Notes: generated by a model not told the origin, from the letters alone. A stretch of DNA of 64,000 nt from Escherichia coli (GCF_016026235.1 NZ_CP065613.1); one strand, 5' to 3'; shown: positions 27,249 through 35,038, numbered from the stretch's first letter. Numbers and translations are program-made.

Positions 27249-28301
27249 TCAGGCAATAGTAATTTTGCTATCGAGATAAACGTCCTGCACGGCGTTAATC
27301 AGTTTCACGCCGTCAGCCATCGATTTCTTGAACGCCTTACGTCCAAGAATCAGCCCCATTCCGCCAGCGCGTTTGTTGATAACCGCAGTACGCACTGCAT
27401 CACTGAGGTCAGTTTCACCGCCTGCAGCACCGCCGGAGTTTATCAACCCAGCCCGGCCCATATAGCAGTTAGCTAACTGATAACGCACCAGATCAATCGG
27501 GTTTTCGCTGGTTAACTTGCTGTACACGCGATCGTCGGTATAACCGTAATTAATCGCTTTATAGCCGCCGTTATTTTCCGCCATTTTTTGTTTGACGATA
27601 TCTGCGCCGATGGTTGCCGCCAGATGGTTTGCCTGACCGGTCAGGTCGGCGGAAACATGGTAATCAACGCCATCTTTCTTAAAGGCGGAGTTACGCAAAT
27701 AGGCCCACAGCACGGTCACCATGCCCAGCTCATGCGCACGTTCAAAAGCCGCAGAAATTTCTTCAATCTGGCGACGTGACTCTTCCGAGCCAAAATAGAT
27801 AGTCGCACCAACCGCCACCGCGCCCATGTTGAAAGCCTGCTCCACGCTGGCATACAGCGTTTGATCGTAGGTATTCGGGTAACTTAGCGTCTCGTTGTGA
27901 TTAAGTTTGACGAGAAATGGAATGCGATGCGCATAGCGCCGCGATACCGACGCCAACACGCCGTAAGTTGATGCCACACAGTTACAGCCCGCTTCGATCG
28001 CCAGTTCAACAATGTTTTTCGGGTCAAAGTAGAGCGGGTTAGCAGCAAATGAAGCTCCGGCAGAGTGCTCAACGCCCTGGTCAACCGGCAGAATAGAAAG
28101 ATATCCTGTGCCAGCCAGACGCCCGGTGTTGTACAACGTCTGCATATTACGTAACACCGCTGGCGGGCGATTATTGTCAATCATTACGCGGTCTACGTAG
28201 TCATGTCCGGGGAGATAAAGCTGGTCAGAAGGAATTGTCATACAACGGTGCTGTAAAAGGTTGTCGGCGTCTTTGCCAAGCAACTGCGCAATATCTGTCA
28301 T
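27249..28301 (-). CDS. fbaB: Class I fructose-bisphosphate aldolase FbaB (350 aa)
   Basis: ORF track 27249-28373; start trimmed to [10 protein letters not shown]. Confidence 0.88.
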
Positions 28302-28557
28302 TACTATGCTCCCGTAAATTCCGATTGGATATCGGCTATGGATTGTCCTGGCCCGCCTTTTGCGGGCAATCATAATCCTGGTCGTTACGGGCGAGTTTTT
28401 CCATCTTTTGGATGTTTTTTCAGCGTTTTCTGTTGGCTCGATTCATCAGAAAAAATGTTAGCGCGGTCAAGTTTTCACCGTAAAGGCATTTAAAAGGTAT
28501 TATTAAGTGGTATTGTCATCGCGTACCTTACATTACCTGTCATGAAGGAATTAAAAG

Positions 28558-29835
28558 ATGAAAACAACAGCAAAGCTGTCGTTCATGATGTTTGTTGAAT
28601 GGTTTATCTGGGGCGCGTGGTTTGTGCCATTGTGGTTGTGGTTAAGTAAAAGCGGTTTTAGTGCCGGAGAAATTGGCTGGTCGTATGCCTGTACCGCCAT
28701 TGCGGCGATCCTGTCGCCAATTCTGGTTGGCTCCATCACTGACCGCTTTTTCTCGGCGCAAAAAGTGCTGGCGGTATTGATGTTCGCAGGCGCGCTGCTG
28801 ATGTATTTCGCTGCGCAACAGACCACTTTTGCCGGGTTCTTTCCGTTACTGCTGGCTTACTCTCTAACCTATATGCCGACCATTGCGCTGACTAACAGCA
28901 TCGCTTTTGCCAACGTGCCGGATGTGGAGCGTGATTTCCCGCGCATTCGTGTGATGGGCACTATCGGCTGGATTGCCTCCGGTCTGGCATGTGGTTTCTT
29001 GCCGCAAATACTGGGGTATGCCGATATCTCACCGACTAACATCCCGCTGCTGATTACCGCCGGAAGTTCTGCTCTGCTCGGTGTGTTTGCGTTTTTCCTG
29101 CCCGACACGCCACCAAAAAGCACCGGCAAAATGGATATTAAAGTCATGCTCGGCCTGGATGCGCTGATCCTGCTGCGCGATAAAAACTTCCTCGTCTTTT
29201 TCTTCTGTTCATTCCTGTTTGCGATGCCACTGGCGTTCTATTACATCTTTGCCAACGGTTATCTGACCGAAGTCGGCATGAAAAATGCCACCGGCTGGAT
29301 GACGCTCGGCCAGTTCTCTGAAATATTCTTTATGCTGGCATTACCGTTTTTCACTAAACGCTTTGGTATCAAAAAGGTATTATTTCTTGGTCTGGTCACC
29401 GCTGCGATCCGCTATGGCTTCTTTATTTACGGTAGTGCGGATGAATATTTCACCTACGCGTTACTGTTCCTCGGTATTTTGCTTCACGGCGTAAGTTACG
29501 ATTTTTACTACGTTACCGCTTACATCTATGTCGATAAAAAAGCCCCCGTGCATATGCGTACCGCCGCGCAGGGGCTGATCACGCTCTGCTGCCAGGGCTT
29601 CGGCAGTTTGCTCGGCTATCGTCTTGGCGGTGTGATGATGGAAAAGATGTTCGCTTATCAGGAACCGGTAAACGGACTGACTTTCAACTGGTCCGGGATG
29701 TGGACTTTTGGCGCGGTGATGATTGCCATTATCGCCGTGCTGTTCATGATTTTTTTCCGCGAATCCGACAACGAAATTACGGCTATCAAGGTCGATGATC
29801 GCGATATTGCGTTGACACAAGGGGAAGTTAAATGA
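28558..29835 (+). CDS. yegT: MFS nucleoside transporter family protein YegT (425 aa)
   Basis: ORF track; 12-TM protein; recognised. Confidence 0.85.
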   Translation: MKTTAKLSFMMFVEWFIWGAWFVPLWLWLSKSGFSAGEIGWSYACTAIAAILSPILVGSITDRFFSAQKVLAVLMFAGALLMYFAAQQTTFAGFFPLLLAYSLTYMPTIALTNSIAFANVPDVERDFPRIRVMGTIGWIASGLACGFLPQILGYADISPTNIPLLITAGSSALLGVFAFFLPDTPPKSTGKMDIKVMLGLDALILLRDKNFLVFFFCSFLFAMPLAFYYIFANGYLTEVGMKNATGWMTLGQFSEIFFMLALPFFTKRFGIKKVLFLGLVTAAIRYGFFIYGSADEYFTYALLFLGILLHGVSYDFYYVTAYIYVDKKAPVHMRTAAQGLITLCCQGFGSLLGYRLGGVMMEKMFAYQEPVNGLTFNWSGMWTFGAVMIAIIAVLFMIFFRESDNEITAIKVDDRDIALTQGEVK

Positions 29836-30836
29836 AAACAGAACGTATTCTCGGTGCTCTTTATGGGCAGGCGTTAGGGGATGCGATGGGGATGCCCTCC
29901 GAGCTTTGGCCACGCAGCCGCGTTAAAGCACACTTTGGCTGGATTGACCGTTTTCTGCCTGGACCAAAGGAGAATAACGCGGCCTGTTATTTTAACCGCG
30001 CCGAATTCACCGACGATACCTCGATGGCGCTGTGTCTGGCGGATGCGTTGCTGGAACGTAAAGGCAAGATCGATCCGGATCTGATTGGGCGTAATATCCT
30101 CGACTGGGCGCTGCGTTTCGACGCCTTCAACAAAAACGTGCTAGGTCCGACCTCGAAGATTGCGCTTAACGCCATTCGCGACGGTAAACCCGTTGCTGAA
30201 CTGGAAAACAACGGCGTAACCAACGGCGCAGCGATGCGCGTCTCGCCATTAGGTTGTTTGCTTCCGGCGCGCGATGTTGATTCCTTTATTGATGATGTGG
30301 CGCTGGCGTCGAGCCCGACCCATAAATCCGATCTGGCAGTTGCAGGTGCGGTAGTCATCGTATGGGCGATTTCTCGTGCTATTGACGGAGAAAGCTGGTC
30401 AGCGATTGTTGATTCACTGCCTTCAATTGCGCGACATGCCCAGCAAAAACGCACCACCACGTTCAGCGCCTCACTGGCGGCGCGGCTGGAGATTGCGCTG
30501 AAAATTGTGCGCAATGCCGACGGCACCGAATCCGCCAGCGAACAGCTTTACCAGGTCGTTGGCGCAGGTACCAGCACTATTGAGTCCGTTCCGTGCGCCA
30601 TTGCGCTGGTTGAACTGGCACAAACCGACCCGAACCGTTGCGCCGTCCTCTGCGCTAACCTTGGCGGCGATACAGACACCATCGGTGCTATGGCGACGGC
30701 AATCTGCGGCGCGTTGCATGGCATTAACGCTATCGATCCTGCGTTAAAGGCGGAGCTGGATGCGGTAAATCAGCTTGATTTCAACCGCTATGCCACAGCG
30801 CTGGCGAAATATCGTCAACAACGGGAGGCGGTATGA
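29832..30836 (+). CDS. yegU: ADP-ribosylglycohydrolase-family protein YegU (334 aa)
   Basis: ORF track; overlaps yegT by 4 bp. Confidence 0.85.
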   Translation: MKTERILGALYGQALGDAMGMPSELWPRSRVKAHFGWIDRFLPGPKENNAACYFNRAEFTDDTSMALCLADALLERKGKIDPDLIGRNILDWALRFDAFNKNVLGPTSKIALNAIRDGKPVAELENNGVTNGAAMRVSPLGCLLPARDVDSFIDDVALASSPTHKSDLAVAGAVVIVWAISRAIDGESWSAIVDSLPSIARHAQQKRTTTFSASLAARLEIALKIVRNADGTESASEQLYQVVGAGTSTIESVPCAIALVELAQTDPNRCAVLCANLGGDTDTIGAMATAICGALHGINAIDPALKAELDAVNQLDFNRYATALAKYRQQREAV

Positions 30837-31798
30837 GCGGCGCTCGATTACACACGCTGCTGCCTGAATTAACCACGCGTCAGTCGGTGATGGTCGTCGG
30901 CGCGGCGGTCATTGACGTGATCGCCGACGCTTATGCCCTCCCCTGGCGTGGGTGCGATATCGAACTGAAACAGCAGAGCGTTAACGTTGGCGGCTGCGCA
31001 CTGAATATTGCCGTGGCGTTAAAGCGCCTCGGCATCGAAGCGGGTAATGCCTTGCCGCTCGGTCAGGGGGTATGGGCGGAGATTATTCGCAACCGGATGG
31101 CGAAAGAGGGGTTAATCAGCCTGATCGATAACGCCGAAGGCGATAACGGCTGGTGTCTGGCGCTGGTTGAGCCGGATGGCGAACGTACTTTTATGTCATT
31201 CAGCGGTGTGGAAAATCAGTGGAATCGCCAGTGGCTGGCGCGATTAACCGTTGCGCCTGGCAACCTGCTCTATTTTTCCGGTTATCAACTGGCCTCGCCC
31301 TGCGGCGAATTGTTAGTGGAATGGCTGGAAGAGCTGCAAGACGTGACGCCGTTTATCGATTTTGGCCCACGTATTGGCGATATCCCGGACGCATTACTGG
31401 CGCGGATCATGGCCTGTCGACCTTTAGTGTCACTCAATCGTCAAGAGGCTGAGATTGCCGCCGAACGTTTTGCTTTATCCGCAGAGATAACAACACTTGG
31501 CAAGCAATGGCAGGAGAAATTTGCCGCGCCGTTGATCGTTCGTCTCGATAAAGAAGGCGCATGGTATTTCAGCAACGACGCTTCTGGCTGCATTCCGGCA
31601 TTTCCAACGCAAGTTGTCGACACCATTGGGGCGGGCGACAGTCATGCCGGTGGCGTACTTGCCGGGCTGGCCTCTGGTCTGCCACTGGCGGATGCCGTAT
31701 TACTGGGCAATGCAGTGGCGTCGTGGGTTGTCGGGCATCGGGGCGGTGATTGTGCGCCAACGCGCGAGGAACTACTCCTCGCACACAAAAACGTATAG
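30833..31798 (+). CDS. yegV: PfkB-family sugar/nucleoside kinase YegV (321 aa)
   Basis: ORF track; overlaps yegU by 4 bp; GAGD motif near C-terminus. Confidence 0.85.
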   Translation: MSGARLHTLLPELTTRQSVMVVGAAVIDVIADAYALPWRGCDIELKQQSVNVGGCALNIAVALKRLGIEAGNALPLGQGVWAEIIRNRMAKEGLISLIDNAEGDNGWCLALVEPDGERTFMSFSGVENQWNRQWLARLTVAPGNLLYFSGYQLASPCGELLVEWLEELQDVTPFIDFGPRIGDIPDALLARIMACRPLVSLNRQEAEIAAERFALSAEITTLGKQWQEKFAAPLIVRLDKEGAWYFSNDASGCIPAFPTQVVDTIGAGDSHAGGVLAGLASGLPLADAVLLGNAVASWVVGHRGGDCAPTREELLLAHKNV

Positions 31799-32518
31799 AT
31801 CGCTGCGACAGTGGCTAATGCTGTACTCAATAGGCCGTTGCTGTTGGTCAAGCGCCACTTGCTTGATCACCAGCACCGGTATTTTGCTATCTAACTGAAT
31901 ATGTGACTGAAACTCGGCATCCGGCATCCGGGCGCTAACGCGGGAACGCGTACGTTGTGGGTAAATGTGCTGGCTGCGGAAATAGTCATAAAGTGAAATC
32001 CCGATGGCATCAACATCATGAATTAAATGCGCCGGAACCCACGATTCCTCAATCGATACCGCTTCTTCATCGACATAGCGAATACGCTTAAGCAAAAAGA
32101 CATCACTTCCTGCTTCGACCGCCAGCTGCTGCGCGACTTCTTCGGGACATTTCACGACACGCTTGTTAACCCATAGCGTATCGGGCTTTTTCCCGCGCAA
32201 TACCACCTGCTGAGAAAAACCTCGCGCTTCTTTCAACGAGTATTCGAAGATGTTGTTGATCTGCGTGCCGTAACCGCGCGAACGCGTCACCACACCCTCT
32301 TCTTCCAGCGCCTGCATCGCCTTGCGCACCGTAATGCGCGAAACGCCGGTTAACTGACTTAAATCACGCTCACCGGGCAAAATATTGCCATGCTCCAGCA
32401 CCCCGCTGCGCACGGCATTTTTTACCGTTTCGGCAAACTTAATATAAAGCGGCGTGTTATCCGCCGCTAAAATACGCTCGTTCAGTTGGGCAATCAGCTG
32501 GGTATGCGCTTGTTCCAT
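31772..32518 (-). CDS. yegW: GntR/HutC-family transcriptional regulator YegW (248 aa)
   Basis: ORF track; N-terminal HTH; convergent with yegV. Confidence 0.85.
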   Translation of the reverse strand: MEQAHTQLIAQLNERILAADNTPLYIKFAETVKNAVRSGVLEHGNILPGERDLSQLTGVSRITVRKAMQALEEEGVVTRSRGYGTQINNIFEYSLKEARGFSQQVVLRGKKPDTLWVNKRVVKCPEEVAQQLAVEAGSDVFLLKRIRYVDEEAVSIEESWVPAHLIHDVDAIGISLYDYFRSQHIYPQRTRSRVSARMPDAEFQSHIQLDSKIPVLVIKQVALDQQQRPIEYSISHCRSDLYVFVCEE

Positions 32519-32569
32519 TTGTCTTTTTCCTGCCGGGGAGTCTGGTGGGAGTATATCACTGCTTCTTAT

Positions 32570-33397
32570 TTAAGGCGTTTCTTTAATCCCATCAACGAAT
32601 GCCTGCAACTCCTCCACCGTGCCATTAAATACATTAAAATCCACCGGACCATTGATGCCATCTACCTGTCCACGGTCGGAATGCTGCCAGAAGCGCCAGG
32701 CCATGCCGTCATTGTCCGGACGACGTTGATAATAGTGAGCCACCCACCACGGATATTCATTGAAATAGCCCGCCAGATTGGTGTGATAAAAAACGGCTCC
32801 TGAGTAAATAATCGGCTTTTTTCCCGTACTTTTTTCGACCATTTTTAGCCACTGACTTACTCGTTTGCGTAATTCTTTTGCCGATAATTTTCCCCGTTCT
32901 TCTACGTCCAGTACCGCAGGGAAATCGCCTTGTGAGAAATCCACCGTTTGCAGAAATAATCGTGCCTGAACCGGCGCTGCTACCGACGGGGAGAAATAAT
33001 GATACGCCCCGCGCAGCAGGCCATTTTCGCGGCTTAGTTGCCAGTTACGCGAAAAATACGGGTCCACCAGCTTTTCGCCTTCCGTCGCCTTAATAAAAGC
33101 AAACTGTAAGCGGATACCGTTGTCGCGCATTTTTGCCACCCGCTGCCAGTCGATCCGCTCCTGCCAGCGAGAAACATCTATTCCGTGAATGGTGTAACTG
33201 GCAGGAATGCGAATAGCGAAAGATTTAACCGGGCGATAACCGTAGAAATGGATGTAGTCTGTAATCTGAACTGCTGTCGAATAGAAAAAATTCACCGTCT
33301 GACGCGGATAAATTGCAACGATGGAAATTAGCCCAAGAGCGCATAATAGAGAGGTGAGTTTTTTTCGACTGGTAATTCTTAGCTGCATTGGTTTCAT
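32570..33397 (-). CDS. yegX: Glycoside hydrolase family 25 (lysozyme-like) protein YegX
   Basis: ORF track 275 aa; N-terminal signal/TM segment; true start may be a few codons downstream. Confidence 0.8.
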   Translation of the reverse strand: MKPMQLRITSRKKLTSLLCALGLISIVAIYPRQTVNFFYSTAVQITDYIHFYGYRPVKSFAIRIPASYTIHGIDVSRWQERIDWQRVAKMRDNGIRLQFAFIKATEGEKLVDPYFSRNWQLSRENGLLRGAYHYFSPSVAAPVQARLFLQTVDFSQGDFPAVLDVEERGKLSAKELRKRVSQWLKMVEKSTGKKPIIYSGAVFYHTNLAGYFNEYPWWVAHYYQRRPDNDGMAWRFWQHSDRGQVDGINGPVDFNVFNGTVEELQAFVDGIKETP

Positions 33398-33452
33398 CCC
33401 TGAATGTCAGTGCCAAAGGCTGACAATAACCAAAGCAGCTATAGTACGGTGC

Positions 33453-34253
33453 TCACCACCAGGCGTGGAAGTGGTGAACCGGACCAATACCGTGACCAAC
33501 TTCCAGCGTGTCGGCCTGGGCTAATGCTGATGAAAGCCAGCTTTTTGCCTCCTGTACGGTGTCAGCCCAGTTTGTATGGCGCGGACGTAGTGCAGCCAAC
33601 GCCGCAGAGAGCGTACAACCAGTGCCGTGGGTGTTTTTGGTCATAATGCGCGGTGCGGTAAACCGTTGTTCACCCTCGCGGGTAAACAGCCAGTCCGGGC
33701 TTTGCTCATCATCCAGATGACCACCTTTCATTAGCACTGCGCCACAGCCCATCGCCAACAGCGATCGCCCTTGTTCCAGCATTTCCTGTTCGGTGCGCGC
33801 GTGTGGCGCGTCGAGCAAGGCGGCAGCTTCGGGCAAGTTTGGCGTTATTAATGAAACCTGTGGCAATAATCGACTGCGCAGCGTAGCAACCGCCGAAGGT
33901 GAAAGCAGCGGGTCGCCGCTTTTTGCCAGCATAACGGTGTCGAGTACCACGTTTTGGATCTGATAACGTTGCAACCGTTCTGCCACCGCTTCAACAATAT
34001 CGGTTTCCGCCAACATACCGATTTTAGTGGTGTCGATTCGCACATCGCTGAACACCGAATCGAGCTGGGCGGCGACAAAATCAGGCTCAATGCGATACAC
34101 CGACTGTACGCCACGGGTATTTTGCGCCACCAGTGCAGTAATAACTGAGCAACCATAAGCGCCAAGTGCCGAGAAGGTTTTAAGATCGGCCTGAATCCCC
34201 GCACCACCACTCGGATCAGTACCGGCAATCGTCAGAGCGTTAATTCGTTTCAT
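33453..34253 (-). CDS. thiD: Hydroxymethylpyrimidine/phosphomethylpyrimidine kinase ThiD (266 aa)
   Basis: ORF track; overlaps thiM by 4 bp. Confidence 0.9.
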
Positions 34254-35038
34254 GCCTGCACCTCCTGCGTCAATTGCCAGAGCGCATCAAGGAAATGTGG
34301 AACAAAACTGCCTGGCCCCTCGCTTCTGGCGACTGCGCGTTCTCCGGCTTGTTTCATCCAGTGACAGGCAGATGCGACATTTTCCAGCGTATCGCCTGGT
34401 AACGCACAGCAGGCAGCGACAACCGCCGATAATGCACAGCCAGTTCCTACCACTTTGGTCATTAACGGATCGCCACCGTGAATACCAATGATACGATGTC
34501 CATCGGTAACATAATCCATCTCGCCAGTGACCACGACGATTGCGCCAGTTTCCCGTGCCAGTGTTTGTGCAGCGGGTATCGCGTTAGCTGCGGCGTCAGT
34601 GGTATCCACTCCCCGTCCACCATTAGCAATGCCAGCTAATGCCATGATTTCCGAAGCATTACCACGTATGGCGGTTGGCTTATGAGACAGAAGTTCCAGA
34701 CAAAAACGGCGGCGATAATCGAGTGCACCAACCGCTACTGGATCAAGCGTCCAGGGTGTTTGAGAGCTTTTTGCTTGCTCAACGGCGGCACACATCGACT
34801 GTGCGCGTAGCTGCGTCAGCGTGCCAACGTTAATCAGCAACGCACTAGCAATAGCCGCAAACTGACTGGCCTCTTCGGTTTCGATAACCATCGCTGGCGA
34901 TGCACCGAGCGCCAGCAAGGTATTGGCAGTAAAGGTTTGCACCACATCGTTGGTCATGCAGTGCACAAGAGGGGAATGTTGGTGAAAAAGGTGTAACGCG
35001 TGCGCAGATTGCGCTGAACTCAGCAGGTCGACTTGCAT
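34250..35038 (-). CDS. thiM: Hydroxyethylthiazole kinase ThiM (262 aa)
   Basis: ORF track; recognised; preceded by a thi-box leader. Confidence 0.9.

Follow-up and report, generated by a model that had tools for sequence, protein, structure and literature searches.

The yegTUV-yegW cluster of Escherichia coli as a possible repressor-controlled module for the uptake and breakdown of a non-canonical riboside

A four-gene cluster, yegTUV-yegW, lies within a 64,000-nucleotide stretch of Escherichia coli DNA (GCF_016026235.1, NZ_CP065613.1; the whole stretch is referred to here as the window, with positions counted from its first letter), and an earlier note on this DNA had proposed that the cluster is a self-contained catabolic module for a nucleoside derivative. 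The reading that we favor, to which we assign a probability of about 45%, is that yegTUV is a repressor-controlled operon for the uptake and breakdown, or possibly the salvage, of a non-canonical riboside, in which YegV would phosphorylate the riboside at its 5' position and YegU would subsequently cleave the phosphorylated product. While the locus, the operon structure and the repressor have been published previously, the evidence for an evolutionary pairing of the hydrolase with the kinase, the transporter swapping that constrains the substrate, and a candidate operator are new here. Among the conserved operons of the best-studied bacterium, yegTUV is one that still has no biochemical function assigned to it; virtually every E. 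coli and many gut bacteria carry it. The cluster comprises the following genes, identified from the list of open reading frames and Pfam matches:

28558-29835, plus strand: yegT, 425 amino acids, NHS-family transporter of the major facilitator superfamily
29832-30836, plus strand: yegU, 334 amino acids, ARH-fold metal-dependent glycohydrolase
30833-31798, plus strand: yegV, 321 amino acids, PfkB-family kinase
31772-32518, minus strand: yegW (ggaR), 248 amino acids, GntR/HutC-type repressor with a winged helix and a UTRA domain

These positions agree to the base with those given in the earlier note, and RefSeq places the identical four genes at identical coordinates (annotated as a nucleoside permease, an ADP-ribosylglycohydrolase family protein, a carbohydrate kinase family protein and a GntR family regulator), with the span 28558-32518 running exactly from the start of yegT to the start of yegW. 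The 4-bp overlaps reported between yegT, yegU and yegV were also found, as two ATGA start/stop junctions (GTTAAATGAAAA at yegT/yegU and GCGGTATGAGCG at yegU/yegV), each with a Shine-Dalgarno-like sequence ahead of it (AAGGGGAAG and GGGAGG). Previous Northern blot analysis detected a single 3.3-kb yegTUV mRNA that was visible only in a yegW deletion strain (PMC10819704). Given this transcript, and given that hydrolase and kinase genes are neighbors again in 64 of 79 loci belonging to many genera, the arrangement is not due to chance. The regulator gene is convergent with the operon, as had been described, and its 3' end runs into that of yegV:

31772-31798, both strands, tail to tail: yegV and yegW share 27 bp at their 3' ends, from the open reading frame coordinates

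A scan for a terminator-like site between these two genes returned none, and the published set of 165 convergent gene pairs with overlapping transcripts ("excludons") in E. coli MG1655 includes yegV-yegW (PMC12288877). Given this overlap and the lack of a terminator-like site, full induction of yegTUV could reduce expression of yegW and thereby sharpen the switch. For the stretch from 28000 to 33000, matches at 95-99.9% identity came from 5425 records. At least 80% of it is present in 5419 of 5426 complete E. coli genomes; the yegTUV-yegW cluster is part of the E. coli core.

Further evidence on the proposed function comes from YegU relatives in other bacteria. In a library of representatives clustered at 50% identity, 234 such relatives were found at E≤1e-30, many of them 600-760 amino acids long. 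Nine of the ten long relatives that were tested proved to be fusions of an ARH and a PfkB domain, in both domain orders (PfkB-ARH in P0191, P0194, P0206, P0209 and P0219; ARH-PfkB in P0202, P0228, P0252 and P0269), and the kinase half of P0202 aligns with YegV from one end to the other at 30% identity and has YegV-specific blocks in common with it. Additionally, tblastn was employed to scan 6 kb around the YegU homologue at 79 loci, taken from one genome per species and spanning at least five phyla (Pseudomonadota, Bacillota, Actinomycetota, Chloroflexota and Deinococcota). A YegV-like kinase was found at 64 of these 79 loci, mostly adjacent to the hydrolase gene, a YegW-like regulator at 53, and a recognised transporter of any kind at 59; the kinase was present at every locus that had a recognised transporter. 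The transporters belonged to several unrelated classes, which varied with lineage. A YegT-type NHS transporter was encoded at 28 loci (Enterobacterales, Vibrio and Gilliamella), an NCS1 permease, whose gene frequently separates those of the two enzymes, at 19 (Aeromonas, Chromobacterium, Bacillaceae, Lactobacillaceae, Dialister, Parasutterella, Streptomyces and Chloroflexi), and a PnuC-type carrier, directly after the YegU-YegV pair, at 13 (Clostridia and Lachnospiraceae), where PnuC-type neighbors exceeded the 42-bit cutoff of the NCBIfam model for nicotinamide riboside transporters, at 96 and 150 bits. A fourth class, ECF, was encountered beside a PfkB-ARH fusion in a metagenome. The NHS, NCS1, PnuC and ECF classes carry nucleosides, nucleobases or vitamin-like compounds, and the swapping among them constrains the class of substrate.

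Beyond these genes, no other neighbor recurred: no Pfam family appeared more than four times among 127 flanking proteins outside Enterobacterales, indicating that the module is self-contained, and no recurrent accessory enzyme pointing to the aglycone was present among the same 127 proteins. Many of the hosts are gut-associated (Dorea, Ruminococcus, Lachnospiraceae, Dialister, Parasutterella, Gilliamella, Epulopiscium and Succinivibrionaceae). Collectively, this comparative evidence strongly suggests that the hydrolase and the kinase act as a pair across bacteria. The idea of the earlier note, a self-contained module acting on a nucleoside derivative, is supported by the fusions, the adjacency of kinase and regulator, the exchange of nucleoside- and vitamin-type transporters and the lack of any other recurrent neighbor, while a catabolic role, as opposed to salvage, is something that we infer.

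Pfam upheld the family calls that had been made for all three proteins of the operon. YegU matches PF03747 (ADP_ribosyl_GH) at 223.4 bits (cutoff 26.2; E=6e-66) over profile positions 1-285 of 287, which is the family of ARH1, ARH3, DraG and Tri1. All seven ARH3 catalytic and metal positions are kept: E24, T60-D61-D62 and D280/D282/T283 of YegU, the last three within a GGDTDT motif at 278-283, align with Glu41, Thr76-Asp77-Asp78 and Asp314/Asp316/Thr317 of human ARH3, numbered in part after a review (PMC7050489). D61 and D282 are invariant, and the other catalytic and metal positions are at least 90% kept, in 30 relatives down to 31% identity. Because these positions are conserved, metal-assisted cleavage at ribose C1 would be expected of YegU. 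In the enzymes characterised to date, the ribose is held through its cis 2'',3''-OH groups by the two metals, ARH1 and ARH3 act selectively on alpha-linkages, and the known substrates all bear a phosphate on the ribose 5'' position (review PMC7050489). The substrates of ARH1, ARH3, DraG and Tri1 are ADP-ribosylated proteins, poly(ADP-ribose) or O-acetyl-ADP-ribose, and these enzymes, unlike YegU, come without a kinase or transporter pairing. YegU scores well below the NCBIfam cutoffs for DraG (78.7 vs 337.05 bits) and Tri1 (67.2 vs 490), and neither YegU nor YegV reaches the cutoff of any NCBIfam equivalog model. No close solved structure of known function was found for YegU, the nearest being MJ1187, of unknown function, and no characterised metabolic role for the ARH fold was found in the literature searched.

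YegV matches PF00294 (PfkB) at 193.3 bits (E=8e-57), and its D28, G53-G54, N58, N202xxE205 and D263TxGAGD269 are conserved in 50-53 of 53 family members. The Asp, Gly-Gly and Asn positions are presumably those that hold the ribose 2',3'-diol in structures of ribokinase and of adenosine kinase. The PfkB fold, these same positions, NxxE and the catalytic Asp within DTxGAGD also occur in the E. coli ribokinase RbsK (PDB 1RKD, 1GQT). In contrast, V26, C55 and A154 of YegV stand in the alignment at RbsK N14, K43 and E143, sugar-contact positions of ribokinase, and YegV lies far under the ribokinase cutoffs (82 vs 299.65 bits for TIGR02152; 60.7 vs 341 for NF008353). Cys55 is a signature of the YegV family, occurring in 47 of 53 members. 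A 2025 preprint still describes YegV as an uncharacterised sugar kinase.

YegT matches PF03825 (Nuc_H_symport) at 610.8 bits (cutoff 25.9; E=1e-183) and NCBIfam TIGR00889 at 652.9 bits (cutoff 446.1). The GxxxD motif of its transmembrane helix (TM) 10 (G311, D315) and the TM8 partner E255 are invariant in 29 orthologues, and the same residues are described in the paper reporting the 3.1-Å crystal structure of YegT in 2025 (PMC11979927). Compared with the characterised NHS symporters NupG and XapB, YegT belongs to the same family, matches the NupG fold with a root-mean-square deviation of 1.57 Å and keeps the TM10 GxxxD proton site; however, it is only 27% identical, the base-contact residues of NupG (Phe143, Tyr318, Phe322 and Asn228) are not kept, and isothermal titration calorimetry revealed no significant binding of uridine, adenosine, cytidine or guanosine (PMC11979927). 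The absence of binding and the missing base contacts argue against a canonical nucleoside as the substrate, but not against membership in the NHS family; the "nucleoside-type" label applied previously is therefore correct for the family, while none of the four canonical nucleosides was bound. The view that the substrate is not established also stands, in that literature searches under both gene names (yegT, yegU, yegV and yegW; GgaR) and for the ARH family together with PfkB, PnuC or a carbohydrate kinase returned no substrate assignment.

In the mechanism that we propose, YegT would import a non-canonical riboside with a proton, and YegV would phosphorylate the 5'-OH of its ribose, thereby also trapping the compound in the cell. 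Trapping by a YegV-type kinase would be most important where the carrier is a PnuC-type facilitator; carriers of this type take uncharged ribosides and depend on a kinase to trap them. YegU, with its ARH fold and two metal ions, would then cut the bond between ribose C1 and the aglycone, yielding ribose 5-phosphate and the free aglycone. GgaR, the product of yegW, would sit on a triple GGTAT repeat covering the -10 region and keep the operon nearly silent until released by its effector, which is probably the riboside or the riboside phosphate. Within this scheme, the structure of the operon, its repression by GgaR, the protein families, the intact catalytic residues and the evolutionary coupling of hydrolase, kinase, regulator and a nucleoside- or vitamin-type transporter are established, while a riboside as substrate, the sequence of the two reactions, their products and the precise operator bases are inferred. 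The same logic is known from the E. coli pseudouridine operon psuT-psuG-psuK (formerly yeiM-yeiN-yeiC), which encodes a transporter, a PfkB-family 5'-kinase and a glycosidase that acts on the phosphate to give ribose 5-phosphate and the base. As in that operon, a transporter, a PfkB kinase and a glycosidase were found here to be encoded and inherited together, judging from the fusions and from the kinase and transporter counts (64 and 59 of 79 loci). The two systems differ in that PsuG is a YeiN-fold glycosidase that cuts a C-C bond, whereas YegU has the ARH fold, and in that the pseudouridine operon has a transporter of another family and a known substrate. A second parallel is PnuC-NadR salvage of nicotinamide riboside, in which riboside uptake by a small facilitator is driven by internal phosphorylation, and PnuC-type carriers adjoin YegU-YegV in Clostridia and Lachnospiraceae. 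In contrast with the scheme proposed here, the NadR kinase has another fold and the nicotinamide mononucleotide (NMN) formed is built into nicotinamide adenine dinucleotide rather than cleaved; moreover, the E. coli operon uses YegT.

YegW consists of a GntR domain (PF00392, 59.2 bits) and a UTRA domain (PF07702, 125.1 bits) and falls under every named equivalog cutoff in NCBIfam. Its proposed role as the regulator, which had been put forward without awareness of the published work, has been confirmed experimentally: YegW was renamed GgaR in 2024 as a repressor with one genomic target, yegTUV (Saito et al., PMC10819704). In that study, chromatin immunoprecipitation with microarray detection (ChIP-chip) located a single genomic site with two sub-sites, one in the 190 bp upstream of yegT and a weaker one at +571 to +869 inside yegT, and gel shifts confirmed binding, with the internal probe-5 (+571 to +869) bound only at a higher dose of GgaR. 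Deletion of yegW raised yegTUV mRNA about 30-fold, glycogen was 2- to 3-fold higher in the deletion strain, which grew poorly on minimal glucose, and adenosine diphosphate glucose (ADP-glucose) at 10-100 µM freed GgaR from DNA in vitro, whereas ADP and glucose were ineffective; what yegT, yegU and yegV do was left open (PMC10819704). YegW resembles the HutC/UTRA-subfamily GntR repressors (PhnF, HutC, TreR and NagR) in its two-domain build, in being encoded beside a single target operon and in being a repressor released by a small molecule, but differs in that its candidate operator is a triple direct GGTAT repeat rather than a simple palindrome.

The search for a regulator binding site upstream of yegT that the earlier note had suggested was carried out, and it uncovered a conserved triple GG(T/C)AT repeat lying over a -10-like hexamer. 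The sites in question are:

28474-28503, plus strand: predicted promoter-like site for yegTUV, with a -35-like TTCACC at 28474-28479, an 18-nt spacer and a -10-like TATTAT at 28498-28503
28485-28527, plus strand: candidate GgaR operator, with direct GG(T/C)AT copies at 28485, 28496 and 28509 and then a conserved GTACC at 28523-28527, overlapping the -10-like hexamer
29365-29393, plus strand: candidate secondary low-affinity GgaR site in yegT, GGTATCAAAAAGGTATTATTTCTTGGTCT, inside probe-5 and having the exact 13-mer AAAAGGTATTATT in common with the promoter site

The promoter-like site, from a consensus scan, matches the consensus at 9 of 12 positions and is inside the 190-bp GgaR-binding region upstream of yegT, and the candidate operator is inside the published high-affinity GgaR-binding probe. 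The repeats are spaced by 11 and 13 nt, and the three-repeat pattern has 2 matches in the 64-kb window compared to 0.00 expected. The window contains only two pairs of same-strand GGTAT copies spaced 9-15 nt apart, both within the two published GgaR-binding regions, and AAAAGGTATTATT occurs only at 28492 and 29372 (0.05 expected). In an alignment of the regions upstream of yegT, the AAAGGTATTTAAAAGGTATTATTnAnTGGTAT...GTACC block is near-invariant across Enterobacterales, from Escherichia to Pectobacterium and Budvicia; in Vibrio, two copies are direct and the third is inverted (AATACC). We consider it very probable that the triple GGTAT repeat is the GgaR operator, with these as its candidate bases, and that GgaR bound there would block the -10 region. 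In distant taxa, GGTAT was not enriched upstream of the operon (0.30 vs a background of 0.38 per 200 nt), indicating that the motif is specific to Enterobacterales and Vibrio. At the internal yegT site, synonymous conservation was not raised (0.58 vs a gene mean of 0.54; rank 109 of 393), implying that this site may be a by-product of the coding sequence, which here encodes the conserved peptide FGIKKVL; such an origin would fit the weaker binding of GgaR in vitro.

Several observations weigh against the riboside proposal. The only experimental functional data point to ADP-glucose and glycogen, namely the release of GgaR, the glycogen content of the ggaR mutant and the lowered iodine staining of a yegV mutant on ADP-glucose plates. 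Moreover, the ARH enzymes characterised so far favor an alpha linkage to ribose (PMC7050489), whereas the linkage in ordinary nucleosides is beta. The nearest characterised relatives of YegV are ribokinases, and Serratia marcescens and Edwardsiella have an intact YegU and YegW without a neighboring kinase or transporter, indicating that YegU can be kept alone. These last two points are also compatible with a reverse order of steps, which we regard as unlikely, in which YegU would hydrolyse the unphosphorylated riboside to the aglycone and ribose, or a ribose-like sugar, and YegV would then phosphorylate the sugar. A housekeeping ribokinase could substitute for YegV in Serratia marcescens and Edwardsiella, and the comparative evidence for the module (fusions, adjacency and no other neighbors) fits either order equally. 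However, YegV is far under the 299.65-bit ribokinase cutoff at 82 bits, its three changed positions (V, C and A) are sugar contacts in ribokinase, E. coli already owns a ribokinase, and the PnuC-type operons suggest trapping by a kinase. The phosphate that all known ARH substrates carry on the ribose 5'' position (PMC7050489) is likewise at odds with hydrolysis of a riboside before its phosphorylation.

The published view, which we consider improbable, is that yegTUV acts on ADP-glucose, with YegT importing it and YegU and YegV processing it, that the operon thereby promotes glycogen, and that GgaR senses ADP-glucose. It draws on the release of GgaR by ADP-glucose and on the rise in both yegTUV mRNA and glycogen upon ggaR deletion (PMC10819704). 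The connection to glycogen came from a single hit in an earlier screen by iodine staining on ADP-glucose plates, which returned the yegV deletion among 13 "glycogen-deficient" mutants; the same study implicated NupG, a related transporter, in taking up ADP-glucose (PMC6195507). The authors themselves left the functions of the three genes open, though, and the effector controls were ADP and glucose, with no ADP-ribose, nucleotide or riboside among them (PMC10819704). The ggaR mutant was slow-growing and glycogen-rich in minimal glucose, where external ADP-glucose is absent, and, given that glycogen rises as growth slows (PMC10819704), an indirect cost of over-expressing the operon 30-fold could account for the effect. 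Moreover, the PnuC-, NCS1- and ECF-type carriers found with the enzyme pair elsewhere would not be expected to carry a nucleotide sugar, and the ARH metal site suits the cis-diol of a ribofuranose, not a glucopyranose. Glycogen (glg-type) genes were linked in 0 of 79 loci, and Pfam and NCBIfam detected no domain for making or using ADP-glucose in YegT, YegU or YegV. We assign a very small probability to a further explanation, that YegU is a true de-ADP-ribosylating enzyme of the DraG, Tri1, ARH1 or ARH3 type acting on protein or nucleic acid and that its neighbors are functionally unrelated. The strong Pfam match and complete ARH catalytic site would fit such an enzyme, but the scores far under the DraG and Tri1 cutoffs would not, and kinase fusions and conserved transporter linkage would make no sense for a protein-directed activity. 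No ADP-ribosyltransferase was linked to the YegU loci (79 loci, 127 flanking proteins). In YegU, Asn and Val occupy the positions of the two residues that stack on adenine in ARH3 (Phe143 and Tyr149), although this is a weak argument because adenine binding varies between ARH classes (PMC7050489). The remaining probability falls to something else, beyond these four readings.

If the riboside reading is true, then the ARH fold, known almost only for protein de-ADP-ribosylation, would have a metabolic branch, and a gut-bacterial route for a nutrient or vitamin precursor would be missing from metabolic models; if it is wrong, yegTUV would be an ordinary unassigned sugar-type operon. A broader version, possible but doubtful, is that YegU-type proteins form a widespread uncharacterised branch of the ARH fold in small-molecule metabolism, as riboside 5'-phosphate glycohydrolases always accompanied by a dedicated PfkB kinase, that their substrate is a vitamin-like or unusual riboside common in the gut, and that GgaR's glycogen effect is indirect. 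Based on the PnuC, NCS1 and ECF carriers and the ARH preference for alpha-linkages, candidate substrates under this broader version would be nicotinamide or nicotinate riboside, corrinoid-derived alpha-ribosides of the alpha-ribazole type, and modified nucleosides with a positive charge. An NMN glycohydrolase activity, for long without an assigned enzyme, is known from the old E. coli literature, and YegU would be that enzyme if the substrate were nicotinamide or nicotinate riboside. With the comparative pattern, the search can be confined to ribosides that PnuC-, NCS1-, ECF- and NHS-type transporters carry; the pattern also suggests re-examining the published connection to glycogen, and the candidate operator is defined well enough for mutation.

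Additional features were observed around the yegT start. The first repeat of the candidate operator (28485-28489) is GGCAT in this strain, but GGTAT in another E. coli and in nearly all other genera, a case of natural variation in the probable GgaR operator. A TGTTA-N6-TCA(A/T) element (28456-28471), immediately upstream of the -35-like hexamer, is conserved across Enterobacterales, with a similar counterpart in Vibrio that has ATCACA as its right half; the element resembles a pair of CRP half-sites, but its spacing to the predicted promoter is non-canonical. Within yegT, synonymous conservation across genera peaks at codons 4-21 (28567-28620; 0.78-0.85 vs a mean of 0.54), a stretch that overlaps a hairpin-like repeat at 28562-28584. 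RNA structure was rejected as the cause, as the predicted fold was no better than that of shuffled sequences (z = -0.75).

Several individual loci from the neighborhood analysis also stood out. In Edwardsiella hoshinae, Serratia marcescens, Edwardsiella ictaluri and Serratia bockelmannii (L025, L027, L028 and L036, respectively), only YegU and YegW are encoded, between phoPQ and purB, and the YegU catalytic motifs are kept where the gene is complete; Hafnia (L024) has the full T-U-V cluster at the same purB-linked position. A high-GC metagenome contig (L081:86-4172, 77% GC) carries overlapping genes for an NCS1 permease, an isochorismatase-family cysteine hydrolase and an ARH-PfkB fusion, in that order. 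The cysteine hydrolase does not look specifically like a nicotinamidase (25.6 vs 174 bits) and was rejected as a recurrent partner, being absent from the other 79 loci, but it may, as a single-locus lead, hint at an amide-bearing aglycone in that organism. At L082:1181-11875, and in the near-identical L083 and L084, a divergent histidine-phosphatase-family gene, a GntR/UTRA regulator, a fused ECF transporter with a CbiQ subunit and a PfkB-ARH fusion are followed by a small molybdopterin-oxidoreductase-like gene, an alkaline-phosphatase-superfamily gene, an NCS1 permease and DeoC; here the same enzyme pair lies within a larger cluster of pentose/nucleoside type. In Lachnospiraceae and Solobacterium (L069, L072 and L077), distant YegU relatives (~35% identity) follow a BglG-type antiterminator and a phosphotransferase system (PTS) EIIBC, with no kinase; here the PTS may supply the phosphate, as a parallel way to phosphorylate and then cleave.

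According to RefSeq, the cluster is flanked by fbaB (27249-28301) on one side and by yegX-thiD-thiM on the other. Downstream of yegW, the region 32570-35038 holds yegX, a lysozyme-like member of glycoside hydrolase family 25 by Pfam, followed by thiD and thiM; linkage of the latter two is limited to Enterobacteriaceae, and they were treated as local synteny rather than as members of the module. On the other side, the longest fbaB open reading frame (27249-28373, 374 amino acids) begins 72 nt upstream of position 28301, where the annotated gene (350 amino acids) starts, and, measured from the annotated start, the true fbaB-yegT spacer is 256 bp rather than 184 bp.

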